Shown here piece after piece: positions 48 through 61,944 of a stretch of 64,000 nucleotides of DNA. The DNA lies in IMG/VR virus record IMGVR_UViG_3300042090_000199, positions 13,745-77,744 of that record; one strand, given 5' to 3'. Every line of letters starts with the position of its first letter. The stretch's first letter is position 1. The notes beneath the pieces were generated by a model that did not search any database, had not been told where the DNA came from, and saw only the letters and a program-made list of their open reading frames with translations. This stretch comes from a virus. The translations under genes were made by a program, and so were the position numbers.

Positions 48-1085
48 ATGATTGGGAAGAAGAGGAAGCTGGTAGTAGGTGCGATCATCGCGGTCGTCAT
101 CGCTATCGTCGCTGCCGTCATCGGTTCCAACCGAGCAACTGCAGCGCCTATCTACGGCGATACGTCGGCCACGGTGAGTCCTTTCACCTTGACCGATCAC
201 GGACCTCACGTGAGTACGCCGACGCCTCTGACGACGCCAGTGACCGTCCTGCCTGCGAGCATCCAGTTTCAGGCGATCGGGACGCCGCCCTTCCTCGGGG
301 CGGATACCTGGCAGGTCAGTCCGGCGACGCTGGATGGCTACGCACTCCAGATCAACAGCGCAGGTCTCCTGACCCTGACGCCGATCAGTGGAGCGACGCA
401 GACCATCGGGGCTGGTGCTATCGCGGTTTCGGCGACTGACGTCCTCGGCGCGACGGGGCTGGATACCGTCACTATCGGGTTCGTCGACGCCACACACTCC
501 AGCCTGACACAGGTGTCACACAACCTGCTGAACAACATCTTCGGCCTGAACAACAACGCCAACGGCCAGGTCGACTTCTCACTGGTACCGACGCCCGCTC
601 CGGCCGTAACCTGGTCGGCAGGGAACCTGCCCAACGGCACGGCGATGGCATCGAACGGTATCCTGACGGCGACGAGCTCGATCCCCGGCGCCTACAATGA
701 GGTGCCTGTGAGGGCTACAGACAGTGGCGGGGCAACAGCCGTCGCGGTCGTGGACCTGACTATCAAGGGTGCGATCGTCGGTAACGATACGCCGAGGCTG
801 TCGCATGGGTATGCGGTTGCGGGAATCAACAGTTCCCGTGAGAACGTGTTCTACGAGCAGGACGGGTCGCCGTCCTGGGACCACTTCACCATCGTGGGCC
901 CCGGCGCGATCAACGGTCACCAGGGTTGGGTTCACGGCCAGCTCGGACTGAACGAAGCGGTCTACGGAGGCCTGCTGGCGGGTCACGGTTACACCGTGTT
1001 CTACCAGCCGGTGACCGGACCAGGCTCGACCACGCCGTGGCCGGGTGCACACTGGGGCTACGTCTACTTCATTAGCGGACGATAG
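48..1085 (+). CDS. Secreted/membrane-anchored protein with putative Ig-like domains
   Basis: N-terminal KKRK plus hydrophobic helix; WSAGNLPNG...GILT...GAY...VRATDSGG resembles the putative-Ig repeat; GC-rich codon usage; RBS GAAAGGA. Confidence 0.6.
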   Translation: MIGKKRKLVVGAIIAVVIAIVAAVIGSNRATAAPIYGDTSATVSPFTLTDHGPHVSTPTPLTTPVTVLPASIQFQAIGTPPFLGADTWQVSPATLDGYALQINSAGLLTLTPISGATQTIGAGAIAVSATDVLGATGLDTVTIGFVDATHSSLTQVSHNLLNNIFGLNNNANGQVDFSLVPTPAPAVTWSAGNLPNGTAMASNGILTATSSIPGAYNEVPVRATDSGGATAVAVVDLTIKGAIVGNDTPRLSHGYAVAGINSSRENVFYEQDGSPSWDHFTIVGPGAINGHQGWVHGQLGLNEAVYGGLLAGHGYTVFYQPVTGPGSTTPWPGAHWGYVYFISGR

Positions 1086-1163
1086 TTACCTGAACGTCCT
1101 GTCCGAGCCGTACGGCGCGGGAACGCCTTACGAGGCGGCTCGGGCAGGGCCTTGAGGTAACTA
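1083..1163 (+). repeat. Conserved hairpin element (GTCCTG/CAGGGC family), copy A
   Basis: Outer stem TAGTTACCT/AGGTAACTA, internal loop GAAC/CTTG, inner stem GTCCTGTCCGAGCC/GGCTCGGGCAGGGC with G-U pairs. Confidence 0.8.
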
Positions 1164-1170
1164 TGGCAGT

Positions 1171-1221
1171 TGCCTTGAATGTCCTGTTCAGTTCTGGGTG
1201 CTGAACAGGGCTTTGAGGGCA
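1171..1221 (+). repeat. Conserved hairpin element, copy B
   Basis: TGCCTT-GAAT-GTCCTGTTCAG / CTGAACAGGGC-TTTG-AGGGCA; same architecture as copy A. Confidence 0.75.
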
Positions 1222-1244
1222 TTCTACAAAGGGAGGAACAAATA

Positions 1245-1568
1245 ATGACTAACTACTACCCGAATAAGGACCGTACTGTACGTCTAGGGCGTCCACCAGC
1301 CTATCCTTGGAAAGAGTGGACTGACGGCACAGAGCGTCTTCTGGTTGAAGGGAAAGACTTCCGGTGCATGGCTGAAAGCTTCGCCCTTCTAGCACGACGT
1401 ACTGCACGTGTTCGAGGACTCCATGTGACAGTTTCTACCATAGCCGTTCCGAAGAGTGCAAAGACTCCGCTAGAGGTCAAAGTGAACGACGAACCTCAAA
1501 ACCTTCAGCCAGGTAACACCTACGTCCTGCTCAAGTTCGAGCGGGAAGAGACTGATGATGAGTCATGA
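1245..1568 (+). CDS. Small putative DNA-binding protein, YPWxxWTDG family paralog 1
   Basis: GRPPAYPWKEWTDG...GKDF shared with ORFs at 52629 and 54215; RBS GGGAGG before ATG 1245. Confidence 0.6.
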   Translation: MTNYYPNKDRTVRLGRPPAYPWKEWTDGTERLLVEGKDFRCMAESFALLARRTARVRGLHVTVSTIAVPKSAKTPLEVKVNDEPQNLQPGNTYVLLKFEREETDDES

Positions 1569-1987
1569 CCATCGAAGTAGACCAGGATAAGTTCCGAGGC
1601 ACTTGCCAGAACTATCGACACGGCCTAAGTTCGGACTACACCTGCCGCGTAGTACGACCTGAAAACGGTCCTCTGAAGGTGTGCAGTAATTGTACTACAT
1701 GGAGTATTACGGACGTTATCTACGAGGACTTGTACAAGGTCAGGATAGCGCAGACCTACGACTGGTGGCGCAGTGAGTTTATCAGGACAGGGCATTCTTA
1801 CGCCAAGGACCGAATGACTGACCTGTATGCGGAACCTGTCACTACAGTAGCTGTCAAGGAGCCTATGCAAGTTCCAGTTAAGAGGCAGCCACCATCGTAT
1901 CTATCCGTCGAAGACTCTGTCAGGGTAATACTGCTCTTCATCATAATCGTAGCCTTGTTCGTCGGGGTGTTCGTCGCGGTACTCTAG
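1565..1987 (+). CDS. Hypothetical membrane protein
   Basis: ATGA overlap with previous gene; Cys pairs; C-terminal TM helix. Confidence 0.6.
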   Translation: MTIEVDQDKFRGTCQNYRHGLSSDYTCRVVRPENGPLKVCSNCTTWSITDVIYEDLYKVRIAQTYDWWRSEFIRTGHSYAKDRMTDLYAEPVTTVAVKEPMQVPVKRQPPSYLSVEDSVRVILLFIIIVALFVGVFVAVL

Positions 1988-2037
1988 TCACAAACACAGT
2001 CTGCGAAAATTCAAGAATTTTTCCCCTCAGTAGCCTC

Positions 2038-2067
2038 TTGCAAGCCTCTTGAGGCTGCAGCTATAAT
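2038..2067 (+). promoter_or_regulatory. Sigma70-type promoter
   Basis: AGCCTC-TTGCAA-N18-TATAAT in an AT-rich gap; same pattern recurs at 6773, 11902, 23075, 52559, 56175. Confidence 0.7.
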
Positions 2068-2117
2068 ATTAACATACGCAGAAATGTGAAGCAGACTAGG
2101 GACAACAGGAGCTGATC

Positions 2118-2729
2118 ATGGCAAGCAGGCGTAGAGCCGCTCAACAGCCTGTGTCGGCGGACGAGCAAGAAGGGACAAACGAGATGACCGAAACTGACTT
2201 CGACGAAACCGTCGCTGTCGACGAAAAGCCTGAGCCGACCTACGACGAGCTGAAGGCTCGCGTCGTCGAGCTCGAGGAGCAGCTGGCCGCGGCAACCAAG
2301 TCGAAGACCAAGAAGGACAAGCCGGAGAAGCGCAAGCCTGATCTTCCCGACGGCTATATCTCCCCTGTAGCCTTCCGTCACAAGCTGGTGGAGCTCGGCC
2401 TGGCCAACGAGAGCATGAGCCCTGTGCAGGTTTACGGGCTGGTACGCAAGGCCTCGTCCAACGGCATGCCTGTCAAGCACTTCGACAAGGCCGGCAACGT
2501 GTACGACGAGATCCAGACGCACCCCGTCACCAACGAGACGCTCACGCGGCCCGGCCTCATCGAGGAAGACGCTCTCAAGTGGTGGAAGGACCGTCCGAAG
2601 CGTCAGCCTGGCCAGCCCAAGCCGAAGACCGAAGGTGAGTCTGCGGACGCCTCCGAGGACTCGGATCTCGAGGACGCCGCCGCGGCCGAAGACCTTGCGG
2701 CGGACGAGGATTTTGACGAGGCCGAGTAG
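2118..2729 (+). CDS. Putative DNA-binding protein with coiled coil and acidic tail
   Basis: ISPVAF...SPVQVYGLVRK...ALKWW resembles the HTH-like ORF at 58603; strongly GC3-biased codons suggest high expression. Confidence 0.6.
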   Translation: MASRRRAAQQPVSADEQEGTNEMTETDFDETVAVDEKPEPTYDELKARVVELEEQLAAATKSKTKKDKPEKRKPDLPDGYISPVAFRHKLVELGLANESMSPVQVYGLVRKASSNGMPVKHFDKAGNVYDEIQTHPVTNETLTRPGLIEEDALKWWKDRPKRQPGQPKPKTEGESADASEDSDLEDAAAAEDLAADEDFDEAE

Positions 2730-2730
2730 C

Positions 2731-2984
2731 AAACGTCCTGTCTGAGTGTTCCTAGGAATGGCGAGGCTCCGCTCAGACAGGATCCAAACGTCCTGTTCGG
2801 ACCTGGGGTTTACAGCGGGCACCGAACAGGACCCAGACACCCTGATCTAGAGTCCCTAATAGGGTTCGTCCCAGTGGTAGGTATCTAGGTCAGGGCCCGA
2901 ACGTCCTGCTCGGGAAGTGGCAACGATCCGTCTAGGAGCTCCTAGGCGACGACCACACGCCCGAGCAGGACTCAAACGTCCAGC
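2731..2984 (+). repeat. Tandem array of hairpins with conserved RRAC-RYCCTG...CAGGRY-YC base and variable loops
   Basis: Units 2731-2785, 2786-2834, 2835-2898, 2899-2973; a fifth opens at 2974; each complete unit has a covarying 11-14 bp stem. Confidence 0.85.
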
Positions 2985-3700
2985 TAGGCGCGTCTAGGAC
3001 ACCAAGGTTTCGATAGCTCGACCATGGTGTGGAAAGAAGCGGAAGCAGGACGAAAAGGCGAAGGGGACAACGCAGGTGAAGCGCAGACCAGCAGGCGCAC
3101 CAGTCACACGTCCTGCCGAGTTGAACCACACCTCTGGTGTCCCCTTCGTCGCGTCGGGACGACACATGTGGGTGTCAGCACCGAGTACGCGCTCGGAACG
3201 TGTTGCACTGGTTCGAATCCAGGTCCCGGCTCGAGGCTCCGTCGTTCTCCCGTTCGACGGAGCCTGCCTAGGTCGACCATCCGCAAAGGGAGTACACACA
3301 CGAGGATGCTTCGGTCAGACTCCACCTAGGCATTACGCCGGCCCGGCGGCGTGCGTCTTGCTTCACCCTCCAGTGGCAGACGCGAAGGGTTCACCCCACT
3401 CACCGGGACCCACAATCGTAGCTGGCAGGAACACTCAACCTCGAGGACTCTTGAGTAAGGTCCGAAGCCGAGAGCACGTTTGCCTTATTGGCCCGTGCGC
3501 TAATATCGAGCCAGCCACTCAATCACCGGGCTGTCAGATGCGTAGTCTGAACAGCTGGCGGCCCGGCCATAACCCTGGGAGCACCTCCTATGGGCGGTCG
3601 ATCGCGACAAGGCAAGCCGGGCCTGCTCTGCTGATCCTGCCCATGCGTGGCGGTGCAGCGGGAGGTGCTCCCAGGCCGACTGAAGGCTGCTGGATGTGTA
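2976..3700 (+). ncRNA. Putative large structured ncRNA of unknown class
   Basis: No credible ORF; many stems, e.g. 3057-3069/3138-3150, 3045-3052/3109-3116, 3574-3589/3660-3675; T-loop GGTTCGAATCC; possible closing helix 2976-2984/3689-3697. Confidence 0.7.
3153..3230 (+). ncRNA. tRNA-like module (not a canonical tRNA)
   Basis: 8-bp acceptor-like stem, D-like arm with GG, extended anticodon-like arm, CTGG-TTCGAAT-CCAG T arm; no CCA. Confidence 0.6.
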
Positions 3701-3755
3701 GGCTTAATCTACAGCATAGAGTACCTGACCAGTGTGACGTAAGAGAGGAGCGGTA

Positions 3756-4139
3756 ATGCCTACAGCTGTTGACGCTCGTCTGTACGAGCAGTGCTGCAAG
3801 GTCTACGACGCCATGAACGAAGCCGCACAGACCCGTAACGCCGACGGAGTCGCTGTCTATCGAGGTTACACGACCTACCTTCTTGAGCAGTGCGGCTACT
3901 CGATCAGCATTTACACTCCGGTCATGCGTAGACTTCGATCCATGGGTTGCGTTCAGCAAAAGGTCCGCGGAGGCCGTGGTATTCCTAGCGAGTGGCTAGT
4001 CATTAAGCCTCCGACGCGTGCGGCCTTTGCTCAGGGTGGGCAGCGATGGATGGCACAACAGGAGCGCATTTCGGATTTGGAAGCTCGTGTCGAGATTCTC
4101 GAGGCACGCCTGGAAGAAGTCCCAGAAGAAGCCGTATAA
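3756..4139 (+). CDS. Winged-helix-like DNA-binding protein with C-terminal coiled coil
   Basis: YTPVMRRLRSMGCVQQKVRGGRG..SEW wHTH-like pattern; RBS GAGGAG. Confidence 0.55.
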   Translation: MPTAVDARLYEQCCKVYDAMNEAAQTRNADGVAVYRGYTTYLLEQCGYSISIYTPVMRRLRSMGCVQQKVRGGRGIPSEWLVIKPPTRAAFAQGGQRWMAQQERISDLEARVEILEARLEEVPEEAV

Positions 4140-4288
4140 ATAATTCAGTAATAGCCAGTTCCTTTTTTCACTATAGGCCAGTAATCCAAATACTAAATAC
4201 GAAATAGTCGGGAGGTGTTAGCAATGCGTAACTGGCTACACGATCTGGTCGAGGCTCTTTGCGACCATCCGGAATTGGACGATGACCT

Positions 4289-4534
4289 GTGAAGTGGCAA
4301 ACAATTCACCCTGCTACATGCGCACACTGCGGGACTCCTGTAACAGATGTGAGACACGTATGCGAACAGGCAATCAAGGACTGGCTAGCTCTGAATGCTG
4401 AGACATCTGTCCTACCTAAGCCTGGAAGATTCGTGTACGAAATCTTCCGAGAGCTTCAGGCCAAACCTTATCGTACGCTAGACCCTGATCCGTCTATACG
4501 TCCACCGATGGAAGACGTGATCAGCGACCTATAG
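4289..4534 (+). CDS. Hypothetical protein (CxxC)
   Basis: ORF with CAHC motif in the operon. Confidence 0.45.
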   Translation: MKWQTIHPATCAHCGTPVTDVRHVCEQAIKDWLALNAETSVLPKPGRFVYEIFRELQAKPYRTLDPDPSIRPPMEDVISDL

Positions 4535-4545
4535 GAGACAATAGT

Positions 4546-4668
4546 ATGCCCTGGTACTTCTGGGTCTTCGTAGGTCTCTGCGGAGCCTGTGTTCTAGTTC
4601 TCCTGGTGTTCGTCGTCTTCCTAGGTTACATGCTAAAGCATTCCGGCGAAGGAAGAGGTAGTCGATAG
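4546..4668 (+). CDS. Small membrane protein (not in ORF track)
   Basis: MPWYFWVFVGLCGACVLVLLVFVVFLGYMLK...; RBS AGGAG. Confidence 0.55.
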   Translation: MPWYFWVFVGLCGACVLVLLVFVVFLGYMLKHSGEGRGSR

Positions 4669-4671
4669 CAT

Positions 4672-4830
4672 ATGAACTGTCGAACTTGTGGGGCGGAACT
4701 AATTCCAGGCACAGTCTCCGAAGGCGGTAACTGGACTAAAGATCGTCAGCAGAGCCAAGCCTACGAGTGCACGCCCTGTAACGCTCCTCAGAATTGTAAC
4801 TGTGTAAGTCTGTACGGAGTATTGTTGTGA
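4672..4830 (+). CDS. Small Zn-ribbon-like protein (not in ORF track)
   Basis: MNCRTCG...ECTPC; its stop overlaps the helicase GTG (GTGA). Confidence 0.5.
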   Translation: MNCRTCGAELIPGTVSEGGNWTKDRQQSQAYECTPCNAPQNCNCVSLYGVLL

Positions 4831-6317
4831 CTACGACACTATACCAGCAACTATACAGGTTCCAACAAGAGCTCGTCGACAAGTTGGGAAGTCCTGATAT
4901 TCCAGCCCGTCTCATTGGGGACGAAATGGGAACCGGCAAGACATATGAGGCTATAGCCATCGAAGACCGTCTACGACGCACACACACAGGCACCAAGATG
5001 CGCACCCTCATTGTTGCGCCTTGGAGCGTTCATGAAACCTGGAAACGTAAGCTCATAGAGCTACTTGGTCTAAAGCCTGCTGATGTTGTTGTTATTGACC
5101 GTAAGAAGAGGACTACCTTTCTACGAGCTGTCCAGCTCGGCCAGGCCAAGTATTATATTGTGCACTACGAAGCTCTGCGCATTGCAGACATGCAGCCGTT
5201 GCAGCGCATCCATTGGTTCCATATCATTGCAGACGAGATTCATCGAATCAAGTCTCCTAAAGCATTGCAGACGAAAGCTTTTAAGCGTCTCAAGGCTCAG
5301 TTTAAGACAGGCATGTCTGGTTCGATTGCAGACGATCGCCCTCAGGACTTCTGGAGCCCTCTACACTGGGCTCGTCCTGATCTGTTTCCGAACGTCTCGA
5401 CGAAGGACCCTACCAAACTATTCGTCAAGGACTGGTGCGAGACTGAAGAGTTCGAAGGCCGTTTTCTCGGTATCGACGACGATGGTAACGAACTCCATCA
5501 GATGCATAAGCGTGTCACAGGTATGCGTCAGGATCGTCTCGACGAGTTTCACGCGCTTATCGCGCCGTTCTATATGCGTCGGCTGAAAGAAGACGTTCTC
5601 GATCTGCCTGAGAAGGTTTTCAGTCCCGTTCACGTTACCTTGTACGCCGGACAGCAAAAGGTGTACGACCAGCTGAAGCGTGAGTTCATAGCTTGGATCG
5701 GCGAACACGAAGACGAAGAGCTACGAATCAACCGTATGTTCGTCTTCGCACAGCTCGTGCGTCTGCAGCAAGCTGCCCTAGCGTCCTTGATGTTCAGGGA
5801 TACTGGCAAGGCTGACCGCTTCGGCAAGCCGATCAAGAAGGTTGCACTACGTGAACCTTCAGCCAAACTAGATGCCTTTGTAGACTGGGCTTCTGACGTT
5901 AACAGTCCTGTCGTCGTGTTCAGTCAAAGCAGAGGCATGATAGACCTGACTGCAGCAAGACTTGATGCAGCCGGAGCTCGCGTAGGCGTTTACACAGGCG
6001 GAACTCCTGATAAAGTTCGTCAGCAAATCATAGACAACTTCAGCGCAGGCAAGCTAGACTTCTTTCTTGGCACGATCAAGGCTGGAGGAGAAGGCGTTGA
6101 CGGTCTGCAACGAGCGTCTAGCACAATGGTGTTTTTTGATAGGGCCTGGGGACCGTTCAGGAATAAGCAAGCTGAAGATCGTCTGCATCGTGAAGGTCAG
6201 AAGAGTTCGGTCCAAATCGTTGACTTCTACGCTCCGAAAACTGTAGATGCAAAGGTTCGAGCGACAAATATCCGTAAGTGGCGAGACCTTCGCCAGATCC
6301 TAGGAGATGAGAGATAG
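4827..6317 (+). CDS. SNF2-like SF2 DNA helicase
   Basis: GDEMGTGKT, DEIH, MSGS, RRLKEDVL, GGEGVDGLQ, QAEDRLHREGQ. Confidence 0.92.
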   Translation: MTTTLYQQLYRFQQELVDKLGSPDIPARLIGDEMGTGKTYEAIAIEDRLRRTHTGTKMRTLIVAPWSVHETWKRKLIELLGLKPADVVVIDRKKRTTFLRAVQLGQAKYYIVHYEALRIADMQPLQRIHWFHIIADEIHRIKSPKALQTKAFKRLKAQFKTGMSGSIADDRPQDFWSPLHWARPDLFPNVSTKDPTKLFVKDWCETEEFEGRFLGIDDDGNELHQMHKRVTGMRQDRLDEFHALIAPFYMRRLKEDVLDLPEKVFSPVHVTLYAGQQKVYDQLKREFIAWIGEHEDEELRINRMFVFAQLVRLQQAALASLMFRDTGKADRFGKPIKKVALREPSAKLDAFVDWASDVNSPVVVFSQSRGMIDLTAARLDAAGARVGVYTGGTPDKVRQQIIDNFSAGKLDFFLGTIKAGGEGVDGLQRASSTMVFFDRAWGPFRNKQAEDRLHREGQKSSVQIVDFYAPKTVDAKVRATNIRKWRDLRQILGDER

Positions 6318-7036: not shown

Positions 7037-7322
7037 AGAAGACTTTCAGGCGTTCTGGGAAAAGAAGACAGGAACCTCCAATAGACATCCTAGAGAAGTC
7101 CTCATACGAGGTTACCAGTTTTACGATCTTCTTCTAGAGGCCTTCACAGCAGGGCGTGAAAGTGTCGAACCGGTTATCAATCCTGAATGGTGCAAGGAGA
7201 TAGTTACCTTGCACAGGTCCAACTCGAACTTCTGGACCATACCAGAACTAGCCAAGCTATTCCAACTTCCAGAAGACCAAGTCAGGGAGATCCTGAATGC
7301 CAAGCAAGACGCTACTGGTTAA
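7026..7322 (+). CDS. HTH domain protein
   Basis: WTIPELAKLFQLPEDQVREIL. Confidence 0.6.
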   Translation: MSAEEDFQAFWEKKTGTSNRHPREVLIRGYQFYDLLLEAFTAGRESVEPVINPEWCKEIVTLHRSNSNFWTIPELAKLFQLPEDQVREILNAKQDATG

Positions 7323-8085
7323 CGAAATCTTCGGTCCAACGATACAGGGTGAAGGTCCTGCAATGGGCCGACGCTGTGCTTTCGTTCGGCTAGCAATCTG
7401 CCCGTTGCGCTGCAAGTGGTGCGACACTCCTTACACGTGGGCCTTCTCGAACCCTATTGCCGCGCACCATCAGAGTCACAAGGTGTACGACTATACCGAG
7501 GAAGTTCGCGAGATGACCGTAGGCGACGTTGTCAGCCAGGCTATCTTCTGTGCATCAGGTGCTAACCTCGTAGTCCTATCAGGTGGTGAACCGCTAGCTC
7601 AGGTCCCTGTCCCGCTACAGGATCCTGGAATCAAGCTGGAAGAGTCTTACGGCGACCCTGTAGGGCTCCTGGTAAATACGCTGCTAGAGGCAGGTATCGA
7701 GACGCATATCGAGACTGCAGGCGTTCGTAGACCTAGCCCGTTCTTGCACGAAGCTGTAGGTGGATATGTCGTTTCGCCTAAGCTGGTCACTAGTGGTAAC
7801 AGTCTCAAGGTAAGACGAGACCTAGACGTCCTGAGGTTCTTCGCGGACACGAATAAGGCGTTCTTCAAGTTCGTGATTACGGAACCGAACGACTTCTCCG
7901 AGATCAGCCAGATAGCAGCCCTATGTAGTATCCCGCCGTGGCGCATATGGGTAATGCCGGAAGGCACGACGCCCAAAGCTATCCAGGAAAAGATGACGTT
8001 CGTAGCAGACCGTGGAATTCGAGCAGGCTACAACGTCTCGTCACGTCTACACATCCTGGCTTGGGGCGACCAGAGAGCACACTGA
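7297..8085 (+). CDS. queE: 7-carboxy-7-deazaguanine synthase (radical SAM)
   Basis: EIFGPTIQGEG, CPLRCKWCDTPY, SGGEPL, SPKL, RLH..WG. Confidence 0.93.
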   Translation: MPSKTLLVNEIFGPTIQGEGPAMGRRCAFVRLAICPLRCKWCDTPYTWAFSNPIAAHHQSHKVYDYTEEVREMTVGDVVSQAIFCASGANLVVLSGGEPLAQVPVPLQDPGIKLEESYGDPVGLLVNTLLEAGIETHIETAGVRRPSPFLHEAVGGYVVSPKLVTSGNSLKVRRDLDVLRFFADTNKAFFKFVITEPNDFSEISQIAALCSIPPWRIWVMPEGTTPKAIQEKMTFVADRGIRAGYNVSSRLHILAWGDQRAH

Positions 8086-11969: not shown

Positions 11970-12677
11970 ATGGGCGGTATAGCAATCGTGTCCGGCGGGC
12001 TTGACAGCACCACGATGCTGTACGATCTTGTGAATAGCGGAACAGACGTAGACGTAGTGTCCTTCAACTACGGGCAGCGTCACATCAGGGAACTGATTCA
12101 GGCAAGAGCTATCACTTCAGCTCTTCGTCTCCATCACCTGATCATAGACATTCCGTCCTATGGACGCTCGATCGTGTCCAGCGCGAGCTCTCTGGTAGAC
12201 CCTAACGCTGAGGTCCCGGAAGGCAGCTACGACGCCGAAAGCATGAAAGCGACTGTTGTCCCGAACCGTAATATGGTCATGATAGCTATGGCGTCGGGAG
12301 TAGCAATCTCTACCAAGGCCCAGTTTGTCGCTACGGCAGTCCATGCAGGTGACCACGCGATCTACCCCGACTGTAGGCCTGAGTTTATCAGGAGCCTAGA
12401 GACGGCTATCAAGATCGGTAACGAAGGGTTCATTGACCCTGGGTTCGAAATCAGGACCCCTTACATCTACAGGACTAAGGCCGATATCGCCAGGCGAGCA
12501 GGCGAACTTCGTGTTCCTGTCGATCTCACGTGGTCGTGCTATAAGGGCGGAACTTCCCACTGCGGACGATGCGGGACCTGCGTAGAACGTCTCGAAGCCT
12601 TTCACGAGGCAGACGTGTTCGACCCTACGGTGTACATGGACACCGAATTCTGGAAGACAGCGGTCGCGGCTAAGTAA
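11970..12677 (+). CDS. queC: 7-cyano-7-deazaguanine (preQ0) synthase
   Basis: SGGLDST, FNYGQRH, VPNRN, YPDCRPEF, TWSCY..G..HCGRCGTCVER. Confidence 0.96.
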   Translation: MGGIAIVSGGLDSTTMLYDLVNSGTDVDVVSFNYGQRHIRELIQARAITSALRLHHLIIDIPSYGRSIVSSASSLVDPNAEVPEGSYDAESMKATVVPNRNMVMIAMASGVAISTKAQFVATAVHAGDHAIYPDCRPEFIRSLETAIKIGNEGFIDPGFEIRTPYIYRTKADIARRAGELRVPVDLTWSCYKGGTSHCGRCGTCVERLEAFHEADVFDPTVYMDTEFWKTAVAAK

Positions 12678-15786: not shown

Positions 15787-16167
15787 GTGCCTAATTACGA
15801 CTTCAGTTCCAGCTTTCCTCATCCACAGTGGAGTATCTGCGGCATGGAGCTTCCTGACGGAAGAGTCCGTATTATTGCTAGCAAGGAGCTCAGTTATGCG
15901 GAACTCCGATACGAAGCGGGGTTCCACCAAGTGTTCGACGGAATCTTCCCGATTCATGCAGGTATCACGCATACGGATCTGACACTGACGACACATATGC
16001 GCACCTGTGTCCTTATCGACGGACCCGACTACGCTACCTGTATCAAGCATCTATTCGAGACTTGGAAGCCTGACGACCTTAAGCGCAAGGCTATCGGTCC
16101 GAAGCAACTCGGTATCGAAGGTTCTCCTACCGGCCGTACACCCACGCCTCCTCCGATCGGATACTAG
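15787..16167 (+). CDS. Hypothetical protein
   Basis: ORF in the operon. Confidence 0.55.
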   Translation: MPNYDFSSSFPHPQWSICGMELPDGRVRIIASKELSYAELRYEAGFHQVFDGIFPIHAGITHTDLTLTTHMRTCVLIDGPDYATCIKHLFETWKPDDLKRKAIGPKQLGIEGSPTGRTPTPPPIGY

Positions 16168-16168
16168 C

Positions 16169-16675
16169 ATGTGGCGCATCAGTAAGACATTTCAGTTCTC
16201 AGCAGCGCACTATCTCAATGATCTTGCAGAAGGCCACCCTTGTGGACGCTTGCATGGGCACAATTACGAGGTCGAACTGTATCTAGAAAGTCCTGCGCTC
16301 GACGATGTAGGCTTCGTACGTGACTACGGAGAGCTAGGACGCTTCAAGACCTGGCTGGACAACACGTTCGACCACAGGCAGATCAACGACACGATCGAAC
16401 AGCCTACAGCCGAGAACATGGCGAAGATGTTCTACGAGCGAGCAGTAGTCTTGTACCCCGAAGTCGTAGCTGTACGTGTCAGCGAGACACCGAAGACAAC
16501 CGCCTGGTATTCGCCGCACTCACTACCGCCGCTAGACACCGTGCTCGATGTCATAGAGTCACTCGCAGGAGAGCCGGTTTCTAGTCCAGATCGTCAGCGC
16601 CTCATAGACGCACTAACTCAGCTTCTTCCGTTCCGGTCTATATTCGGCGTGGGAGAGCCTGGTGGAGGGAAGTAA
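16169..16675 (+). CDS. queD: 6-carboxy-5,6,7,8-tetrahydropterin synthase
   Basis: ISKTFQFSAAH, CGRLHGHNY, DH, PTAEN, SETPKT; ~50-aa C-terminal extension. Confidence 0.93.
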   Translation: MWRISKTFQFSAAHYLNDLAEGHPCGRLHGHNYEVELYLESPALDDVGFVRDYGELGRFKTWLDNTFDHRQINDTIEQPTAENMAKMFYERAVVLYPEVVAVRVSETPKTTAWYSPHSLPPLDTVLDVIESLAGEPVSSPDRQRLIDALTQLLPFRSIFGVGEPGGGK

Positions 16676-61864: not shown

Positions 61865-61944
61865 TCTAACCCTCAACGTCCTATCCGAGTCTGGAGGCCA
61901 CAAGCCTTTCTGCGACCGACTCGGATAGGGCCTTGGAGGTTAGA
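61865..61944 (+). repeat. Conserved hairpin element, copy C
   Basis: TCTAACC..CAAC-GTCCTATCCGAGTC / GACTCGGATAGGGC-CTTG..GGTTAGA; compensatory change G-C to A-T. Confidence 0.8.

Follow-up and report, generated by a model that had tools for sequence, protein, structure and literature searches.

Tandem and dispersed copies of an intercistronic hairpin in the genome of a wetland phage

We analysed a stretch of 64,000 nt of phage DNA (the window), which comprises bases 13745-77744 of the 77.7-kb IMG/VR record IMGVR_UViG_3300042090_000199, a record that stems from a wetland metagenome and is about 83% complete. The subject of the analysis is a tandem array of hairpins that begins directly after the TAG stop codon of an open reading frame (ORF), here called ORF203, and that leads, as the initial annotation of this DNA had noted, into a large structured RNA ahead of the next gene, ORF127 (Table 1). 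The locus lies 1.8 kb upstream of the gene for the replicative helicase. In addition to the helicase, the phage encodes a DNA polymerase, a primase-like protein, an exonuclease, a Sak4-like annealing protein and a QueC/D/E set, and its large terminase shares about 42% identity with those of phages of Streptomyces and Microbacterium. The scans with Pfam and PHROGs did not reveal an integrase among the proteins covered. For comparison, a set of related phages was available in which one phage (G001) is a close relative of the present phage (G000), while the remaining relatives are distant.

The array was initially annotated as four abutting units of 55, 49, 64 and 75 nt with a conserved base. The sequence and a repeat search, which found the repeated junction at exactly these start-to-start spacings, agree with this description. 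The fifth opening that had been listed, AAAC-GTCCAGC, closes as an imperfect hairpin and is counted here as unit 5. Perfect inverted arms of 11-12 nt were found by the repeat search in units 1, 2 and 4; unit 3 has a wobble-containing stem. The base RAAC-GUCCUG...CAGGRC-CY is common to all five hairpins, but the conserved part is longer than the 6 bp originally recognised and reads approximately GUCCUGYYCGRG in the stem consensus. The segment 2725-3060 is predicted to fold into five separate hairpins with an energy of -158.9 kcal/mol, compared with -118.1 +/- 5.7 kcal/mol for shuffled sequences (z -7.2, 0/100 shuffles), and the individual units have z values between -2.8 and -5.7. The minus strand of the same segment folds less strongly (-148.3, z -5.6).

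Table 1. Positions of the array, the dispersed family copies and the neighbouring features in the window.
Feature	Position	Strand	Remarks
Family copy A	1083..1163	+	Starts at the stop codon of ORF 48..1085; 55.4 bits on +, 15.4 on -
Family copy B	1171..1221	+	In tandem with copy A
Sigma-70-type promoter	2038..2067	+	TTGCAA-18-TATAAT; consensus scan, 10/12 matches
ORF203	2118..2729	+	Acidic-tailed protein; first gene after the promoter, which is strong; co-transcribed with the array according to RNA contigs
Array unit 1	2735..2783	+	14-bp stem, 21-nt loop with UUCCUAGGAA; absent from G001
Array unit 2	2790..2832	+	11-bp stem, 21-nt loop; in G001 same stem, different 43-nt head
Array unit 3	2839..2896	+	Variant base (A)CCCUG/CAGGG(C), U.G wobble in stem; absent from G001
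Array unit 4	2903..2971	+	12-bp stem, 45-nt head with apical palindromic hairpin; conserved in G001
Array unit 5	2978..3051	+	Degenerate 74-nt imperfect hairpin GUCCAGC...GCAGGAC; G001 keeps the shape with other sequence
Long hairpin	3059..3148	+	Follows the array; base conserved in G001; contigs of three runs end in its 3' arm (3116, 3126, 3136)
tRNA look-alike	3153..3230	+	8-bp acceptor stem, 4-bp T stem, UUCGAAU loop; not called as tRNA
11-bp hairpin	3234..3265	+	Follows the tRNA look-alike; stem rebuilt in G001 by compensatory changes; contig break at 3241/3272
Non-coding conserved region	3266..3755	+	About 490 nt, heavily paired, with a 15-bp helix; reaches ORF127
ORF127	3756..4139	+	127-aa protein; conserved downstream partner of the locus
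Family copy C	61865..61944	+	Fills the gap from stop codon to next AUG; 58.9 bits on +, 29.3 on -

The array units belong to a family of hairpins, and an alignment of 15 family copies over 12 stem pairs was used for the analysis of covariation, together with 500 shuffles. In this alignment, 98.3% of the cells form standard pairs, and in 8 of the 12 pairs both partners are changed, as in U-A/G-C at pair 5 or G-C/A-U at pair 6. The covariation score was not reached by any of the 500 shuffles, and only 28-49% of the cells pair in slid registers. In the first 12 pairs of 17 copies there are 16 G.U wobbles and 2 A.C combinations, the latter being the form in which wobbles of the other strand would appear. 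The G.U wobbles fit only the plus strand, and the hairpins were assigned to plus-strand RNA. A covariance model of the family (R1) scored 35-64 bits on the plus strand and 15-33 bits on the minus strand at the same sites, and every family copy lies on the coding strand of the neighbouring genes. Fold and covariation both support the original description of the locus, in which structured RNA units are arrayed in tandem on the strand that is transcribed. Judged from these comparisons of sequences, the array units are hairpins kept by selection in plus-strand RNA.

The array is not the only locus of its kind, and the same hairpin occurs at other sites in the window, as copies A, B and C. Copy A has an outer stem, followed by G/G and C/C mismatches around AA/UU and then by an inner GUCCUG/CAGGGC stem. 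The same architecture is found in single copies in general, which carry an extra variable outer stem that is joined to the inner GUCCUR/YAGGGC stem via a G/G and a C/C mismatch flanking two A-U pairs (consensus (CCYU)GAAC-GUCC[U/G]R ... YMGGRC-CUUGRRGG, with the half-words 30-130 bp apart). The outer stem takes its start from the upstream stop codon. In copy C (GGAGG) and in the copies of G003, G007 and G009, this stem pairs with the GGAGG or GAGG that precedes the next AUG. In several copies, the 3' flank CUUGRRGG is identical with or adjoins the Shine-Dalgarno sequence of the next gene.

Besides its copies in the present genome, the family was detected in at least 8 related viral contigs. 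Single or paired copies between stop and start codons are present in G000-G004 and G007-G009. In G001, pattern scans and R1 placed the family at the same three sites as in the present phage, and elsewhere there are two copies in G002, one each in G003 and G004, and three each in G007 and G009. G008 contains an abutting tandem pair with the linker CUUGAAC. The viral matches of the pattern scans (3 + 4) were all true hairpins with stems of 11-16 bp. No family copies were found with R1 in L010-L018, distant phages that are related via the helicase. A search of 185,579 prokaryote genomes with the single-copy pattern gave 16 matches, about the number expected by chance, and none of these had an extended stem except for one of 10 bp; the search thus revealed neither a family of such hairpins in potential hosts nor a clue to the host. 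The family is specific to this phage clade, and its single copies are cis elements between cistrons.

The array itself varies between the relatives, both in the number of units and in their heads, so that two of the outcomes which the initial annotation had named as refuting its interpretation did not occur. There are five units in the present phage, three in G001, and 0-1 in more distant relatives. G001, whose ORF203 is 86% identical, has counterparts of units 2, 4 and 5 but lacks units 1 and 3, and its counterpart of unit 4 shows a compensatory change in the apical palindrome. In G002 (ORF203 57% identical), no such unit follows the ORF203 homologue, and the non-coding region is shorter (about 455 nt). 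Two other hairpins are present at the locus in G004. In L079 (36%), only one family-like hairpin was found between the homologues of ORF203 and ORF127 (2929-3075). It has the variant base GAAC-GCCUGG...CCAGGU-UUUGAGGG and is followed by AAGGAGG and a start codon, and this spacer with one hairpin may represent the ancestral state of the locus. In L078 (48%), the spacer contains a stop-anticodon tRNA as well as several hairpin modules in a row, of which two have bases of the GUCCUG type, and a second element that resembles a tRNA. The site between ORF203 and ORF127 is an expandable set of RNA modules, and the array flagged in the initial annotation is its local form.

The tRNA of L078 was called by ARAGORN at 3001-3081, immediately after the stop codon of the ORF203 homologue, and has the anticodon UUA, which reads the UAA stop codon. 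The second element consists of a tRNA-like T arm just before the ORF127 homologue.

The loops of the units had been described as unrelated, and this statement needs to be qualified. At 17 of 21 positions, the loop of unit 1 agrees with that of a dispersed copy in G004, although the stems of the two hairpins differ at five pairs in a compensatory manner. Drift of the heads is thus constrained, and heads move from one context to another.

Outside the G000/G001 lineage, no array of exactly this form was found in viral and metagenome contigs. A two-unit array pattern had no matches in viral contigs, although it was too strict for the 5-nt linker of G001, and 13 matches in metagenome contigs, among which the only true relative was the contig of G001; the remaining matches were unrelated tandem repeats or chance matches in coding sequences. 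Queries of 50,697 phage records with region 2000-4200 (blastn) and with ORF203 (tblastn) gave no match. A tblastn comparison of all ORFs with seven relatives did not identify a candidate for a protein that co-occurs with the hairpin family beyond replication and queuosine-type core genes, and a literature search on conserved tandem intergenic stem-loops in phages returned nothing pertinent.

Transcription was assessed with contigs from four wetland metatranscriptomes (X5, X7, X8 and X9), which were mapped to window positions 500-5000. Each contig has one depth value, its ends are not RNA ends, and strand and local depth are not given, so that the results on expression are indications rather than measurements. 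Contigs of two runs start at 2090/2091, about 23 nt downstream of the promoter, the TATAAT of which is found at the same place in G002. In X5, a single contig (2091-3241) extends across ORF203 and the array. In the other runs, contigs cover the array and the hairpin that follows it (X7, 2760-3116, depth 27.3; X8, 2653-3136, depth 27.5; X9, 2853-3126, depth 14.5), and since the depth over ORF203 is 2.0-5.7 in these three runs, the array is covered 5-7 times more deeply. All four unit junctions are bridged at full array depth by contigs of the four metatranscriptomes. The stretches 1104-2009 and 3973-5000 were without RNA cover in all four runs, which is taken as context only and not as proof of absence; because of these uncovered stretches, uniform DNA carry-over is an unlikely source of the array contigs. 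The expectation that the array is transcribed in nature was thus borne out. According to the contigs, ORF203 and the array share a transcript that originates at the promoter, and the array exists as a single uninterrupted RNA of several hairpins. In three of the four samples, this segment is several times more abundant than the upstream ORF203 message, which it tends to outlast.

Downstream of the array, the conservation between the relatives continues, with a mean column identity of 84% over the whole aligned stretch and long invariant runs 3' of the array. The tRNA look-alike had only a weak tRNA-Sec match (E=3) and was not detected by ARAGORN, but its acceptor stem shows one compensatory change from G-C to A-U in G001. 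It has an anticodon-type loop of 6 nt and no encoded CCA. ARAGORN found no tRNA or tmRNA in the window, and Rfam 15 gave no match at gathering thresholds in the whole window and only chance-level matches (E >= 0.6, with a cut-off of E<=10) in 2600-3900. Three of the runs are without a contig over 3137-3242, the region of the tRNA look-alike, and cover resumes at 3243-3252, as expected if the tRNA look-alike is excised or is hard to reverse-transcribe; this gap, too, is taken as context and not as proof of absence. Further downstream, RNA contigs were found at 3243-3411 and 3272-3905. In three runs there is a separate contig of about 150-165 nt within 3243-3411 (depth 6-16), and adapter sequence abuts positions 3252 and 3394. 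This contig suggests a short, abundant RNA species 3' of the hairpin at 3234-3265.

ORF203 has 14 homologues, in which the core (residues 75-160) is conserved. The core is modelled as a winged helix with a predicted local distance difference test (pLDDT) score of about 90 in AlphaFold2 (AF2), and in VIA-align it showed a weak structural resemblance (Z 4-5) to the DNA-binding domains of BldC, Xis and MerR-type proteins. A Foldseek comparison of the model with the PDB gave no match with E<=0.001. The modelled likeness to small winged-helix DNA binders is therefore treated as a hint and not as an assignment. The remainder of the protein consists of a disordered acidic N-terminal part, a coiled helix (42-61) and an acidic tail (...DEDFDEAE), which is present in nearly all homologues. 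Pfam and PHROGs did not suggest a function for the ORFs that flank the array.

Several known classes of repeated or structured elements were considered for the array. The locus had also been said to read as repeat-spacer-repeat, and it shares this look, the partly palindromic short repeat and the variable intervals with arrays of clustered regularly interspaced short palindromic repeats (CRISPR) and with phage mini-arrays. In contrast to CRISPR arrays, whose direct repeats measure about 23-50 nt and are nearly identical, the repeat of 18 nt is only 66-83% alike between copies, the longest repeated word (23 nt) has 70-83% identity with an exact core of 9-11 nt, and the "spacers" of 31-57 nt pair end to end, each interval having 5-8 further complementary bases at its ends, so that the intervals form hairpins. 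No match to cas was obtained among 36 ORFs scanned with PHROGs or Pfam, which make up part of the record, and no cas, reverse transcriptase or nuclease gene was recognised among the proteins scanned. In type III toxin-antitoxin RNAs (ToxI-like), the units are near-identical, about 34-36 nt long and followed by a gene for a ToxN-type endoribonuclease, whereas those of the array measure 49-75 nt and differ in stems and heads; ORF127 had no match to a nuclease family, although no search was aimed at ToxN itself.

An explanation of the array by duplicated intrinsic terminators is at odds with the lack of a T-run after any unit, with an empty terminator scan of 2730-3060 and with RNA contigs that run through the array. 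Neither ARAGORN nor Rfam identified a tRNA in the array, and tRNAs or minihelices with a 3' CCA do not fit because the corresponding triplets are CCA, CCA, CCG and UCA here, UAA and CCA in G001, and CUU or UUU in the single copies. Integron attC elements have RYYYAAC ... GTTRRRY ends, with which the flanks CCAAAC / CUUGAGG do not agree, cassette ORFs between the sites and an IntI integrase; there are no ORFs between the units, and no integrase was found among the scanned proteins. A Ro60/Y-RNA module was rejected since the profile of the TROVE domain, found in proteins encoded with such RNAs, matched nothing in the 77.7-kb record (about 83% complete) while the control genomes were positive. 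A phage-encoded RNase III was not found either.

Among the explanations that we weighed, we give an even chance to the one in which a cis-acting intercistronic hairpin was amplified in tandem and the resulting array forms a block resistant to nucleases and Rho. The single intercistronic copies in the relatives argue for a cis-acting element that was amplified, and the array units, being copies of this hairpin, do not support the undescribed system that had been proposed. According to this explanation, the phage clade would place the hairpin module between genes on early, sense-strand transcripts, and the shared base RAAC-GUCCUG...CAGGRC-CY would be the part that is recognised or that folding requires. 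The outer stem of the single copies, which starts from the stop codon and often hides the next Shine-Dalgarno sequence, would suit translational coupling or processing-dependent control. In the array, five consecutive G+C-rich stems of 11-14 bp would block 3'-5' exonucleases, RNase J-type 5'-3' decay and Rho. The array segment would then survive as a stable species, which would cap the 3' end of the ORF203 message as well as the 5' side of the downstream structured RNA. The block would be located at the head of this structured RNA of about 1 kb, and processing of the RNase P/Z type probably cuts the RNA at the tRNA look-alike. The number of units may change via unequal recombination at the 9-11-nt direct repeat (C)AAACGUCCUG.

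The closest parallel to the single copies is provided by coliphage T7. Its RNase III processing hairpins, which shape mRNA stability and downstream translation, reportedly lie between the early genes (R0.3, R0.5, R1.1 and others, from the work of Dunn and Studier). Like the present family, the T7 hairpins occur in few sense-strand copies per genome, which have no U-tract and fill the place from a stop codon to the ribosome-binding site of the next gene. Copies A, B and C and the copies of the relatives share with the T7 hairpins a lower and an upper stem that are separated by a conserved irregularity. The array units, however, have the upper stem only, the T7 sites are not known to form five abutting units, there is no sequence relation, and cleavage is known for T7 only.

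Several points weigh against a mere block to decay. The contigs give neither RNA ends nor strand nor half-life, X5 has the array and ORF203 in one contig, and the excess of array cover is seen in only three of the four runs. Sequence conservation at the base of the stem is not required for a plain stability block, and such a block explains neither the retention of the unit 1 loop in a distant phage nor the approximately fivefold enrichment of CUAG in the heads (see below). The array units are devoid of the outer stem and the CUUGRRGG flank, and their pair 2 is U-A instead of the U.G of the single copies, so that array units may do something different from single copies. Finally, no nuclease or binding partner was recognised for the array. 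Because the conserved base, the unit 1 head and the CUAG excess are left unexplained, we retained explanations in which the array binds a factor or gives rise to small RNAs.

It is conceivable, although we consider it unlikely, that the spacer between ORF203 and ORF127 is an expandable landing pad, which ranges from one hairpin in L079 to a dozen modules here, and that the array is a functional multivalent RNA with a shared handle, which is read by one factor, and exchangeable heads that have their own targets or partners. The modules would include tRNA look-alikes or, as in L078, suppressor-type tRNAs, and the heads would be rich in CUAGG, with one of them conserved across distant phages. If this were true, the locus would represent an undescribed phage ribonucleoprotein or decoy system with high-level expression early in infection. 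Polycistrons of irregular and 8/4 "allo-tRNA-like" sequences have been found in forest and peat-soil metatranscriptomes (Mukai et al., 2017; PMC5389517). They resemble the present locus in being soil or wetland RNA and in that an 8/4 tRNA look-alike is part of a multi-module transcript, and the stop-anticodon tRNA at the same locus of L078 adds to the likeness. The allo-tRNA units are tRNA-shaped, however, whereas the five array units are plain hairpins and not cloverleaves.

It is somewhat more doubtful that the array acts as a docking or sponge RNA, in which base and linker bind one host or phage factor, the same as at the single copies, and in which the RNA with its five sites titrates or concentrates this factor. 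A conserved sequence at stem base and linker combined with variable heads would be expected of such an RNA, the same motif is present at two to three regulatory-looking sites per genome, and the RNA is abundant, contiguous and of a copy number that expands and contracts between relatives. The array shares with the sponge RNAs CsrB and RsmZ that a short motif is repeated on a row of hairpins in an abundant RNA and that the repeat number varies between relatives. In the Csr/Rsm systems, the GGA motif is exposed in the loops and the partner is known, whereas the constant part of the array is the stem base with the linker. No partner was recognised here: the phage is without a TROVE or RNase III gene, and ORF203 models, weakly, as a winged helix of the DNA-binding type. 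The differences between array units and single copies at pair 2 and in the 3' flank also disagree with binding of one and the same factor.

In the initial annotation, the array was thought to be a precursor that is cut into several small RNAs. We regard as distinctly improbable that it is processed at the junctions into trans-acting small hairpin RNAs, the heads of which serve as guides, antisense RNAs or decoys. The combination of a shared handle with variable heads, which are swapped between relatives, the abundance of the RNA and the position beside a tRNA look-alike, a possible site of cutting by RNase P/Z, would suit such a precursor. Unit-length products were not seen among the contigs; at 49-75 nt, they would be lost from standard RNA libraries, so that their absence is uninformative, but the four junctions are bridged at full depth in the four runs, which speaks against the proposed cutting. 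In a search for targets of the loops in the phage genome, the longest complements (9-12 nt) were no better than those of shuffled loops; the phage collection did not contain a match either. These results argue against guide or antisense loops, as do the absence of cas, reverse transcriptase and nuclease genes among the scanned proteins and the single copies that related phages hold in a plainly cis position.

Even less probable is a selfish palindromic repeat which resembles the repetitive extragenic palindromic (REP) units and bacterial interspersed mosaic elements (BIMEs) of enterobacteria, spreads between genes, multiplies in tandem, and is tolerated rather than used. REP/BIME units act as mRNA 3' stabilisers and protect upstream RNA from 3' exonucleases. 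They share with the present family imperfect palindromes after stop codons, single or tandem arrangement, a conserved word at the foot of the stem, here a tetranucleotide 5' of it, and a variable copy number, and the hairpins of the phages are indeed both dispersed and in tandem, vary in number at orthologous sites and may include a nested copy in the head of unit 4 (72%). REPs, however, number hundreds per genome in both orientations, are conserved over the whole stem and depend on RAYT transposases, whereas the phage genomes have one to three dispersed sites, always in sense orientation and always exactly between stop and start, with variable heads. The compensatory divergence of the stems indicates selection on structure, no copies were found in the prokaryote genomes, and no RAYT/IS200-type gene was seen among the scanned proteins, although no search was aimed at that family.

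The last explanation, in which the 18-bp imperfect palindromes CAGGAY-N6-GTCCTG are sites in DNA, such as operators, iterons or origin repeats bound for instance by ORF203, draws on the palindromic junctions, on the resemblance of the ORF203 core to BldC/Xis/MerR-type binders of site arrays and on the nearby replicative helicase, but it is very improbable, given that complementarity extends compensatorily for 5-8 bp past the conserved word into variable sequence, which a protein site does not need, that the G.U asymmetry favours one strand, that the spacing is irregular (49-75 bp, and 30-130 bp between the half-words of single copies), and that the structural match of ORF203 is weak (Z about 5). 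Covariation, strand bias and placement agree less well with both the DNA-level and the selfish-repeat explanation.

Little of the non-coding RNA of phages has been charted, and there are hardly any studies of soil and wetland phages at the RNA level. The family described here is a clade-specific hairpin with strong covariation support and a clear cis context, consisting of stop codon, hairpin and hidden ribosome-binding site. The locus provides a testable handle on the punctuation or stabilisation of early transcripts, on the growth of structured-RNA loci and on the recruitment of host factors by motifs at the stem base. Should the array be no more than a stability block, the gain would be modest, yet useful for annotation, where such elements should not be taken for terminators, CRISPRs or tRNAs. 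If the heads have partners, the array would represent a new kind of phage RNA system.

We also note some properties of the heads. CUAG occurs 7 times in the 270-nt array, compared with about 1.4 occurrences expected from its genome frequency, mostly as CUAGG or CCUAGG in the heads. The CUAG/CCUAGG sites span positions 2752-2994 and recur at 3268 and 3326, CCUAGG alone is present 4 times in 2730-3756 (0.3 expected), and the genome overall shows no avoidance of CTAG (ratio 1.4). In the head of unit 4, a stretch of 25 nt (2922-2946) is 72% like the 5' part of unit 1 (2732-2756), including the AAC-G..CC word, and is possibly a nested, degenerate unit.

The non-coding region contains a long stop-free frame. 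On the plus strand, one frame has 252 codons without a stop (2998-3753), a length reached by 4 of 1000 dinucleotide shuffles. The corresponding frames have 280 codons in G001 (0/1000), 152 of 153 in G002 (28/1000; G002/L008 3500-4114) and 236 in L078 (2796-3506), and they end at or just inside the start of ORF127, here in TAATG. A GTG at 3076 is preceded by AAGGGG, and by GGAGGGG in G001. Between G000 and G001, substitutions are distributed over the codon positions without bias (32/44/45). The indels leave the frame intact, as their lengths are multiples of three or add up to three. The frame runs partly over unit 5 in the present phage and over two units in G001, while units 1 and 3 contain stops in this frame. 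Either the region is maintained in a translatable form, or the peptide that it encodes is under no constraint.

Minor observations concern the surroundings of copies A and B. The ATG of ORF 1179..1568 lies inside copy B, which makes the call of this start doubtful. The stretch 1104-2009, for which none of the four runs provided an RNA contig, spans ORFs 1179..1568 and 1565..1987, and both the gene before the two copies and the operon after 2090 are covered by RNA contigs. A transcription unit may have its end at copies A and B. Elsewhere in the window, QueE-, QueC- and QueD-like genes are located at 7297-8085, 11970-12677 and 16007-16675, respectively, and point to 7-deazaguanine modification of the phage DNA.

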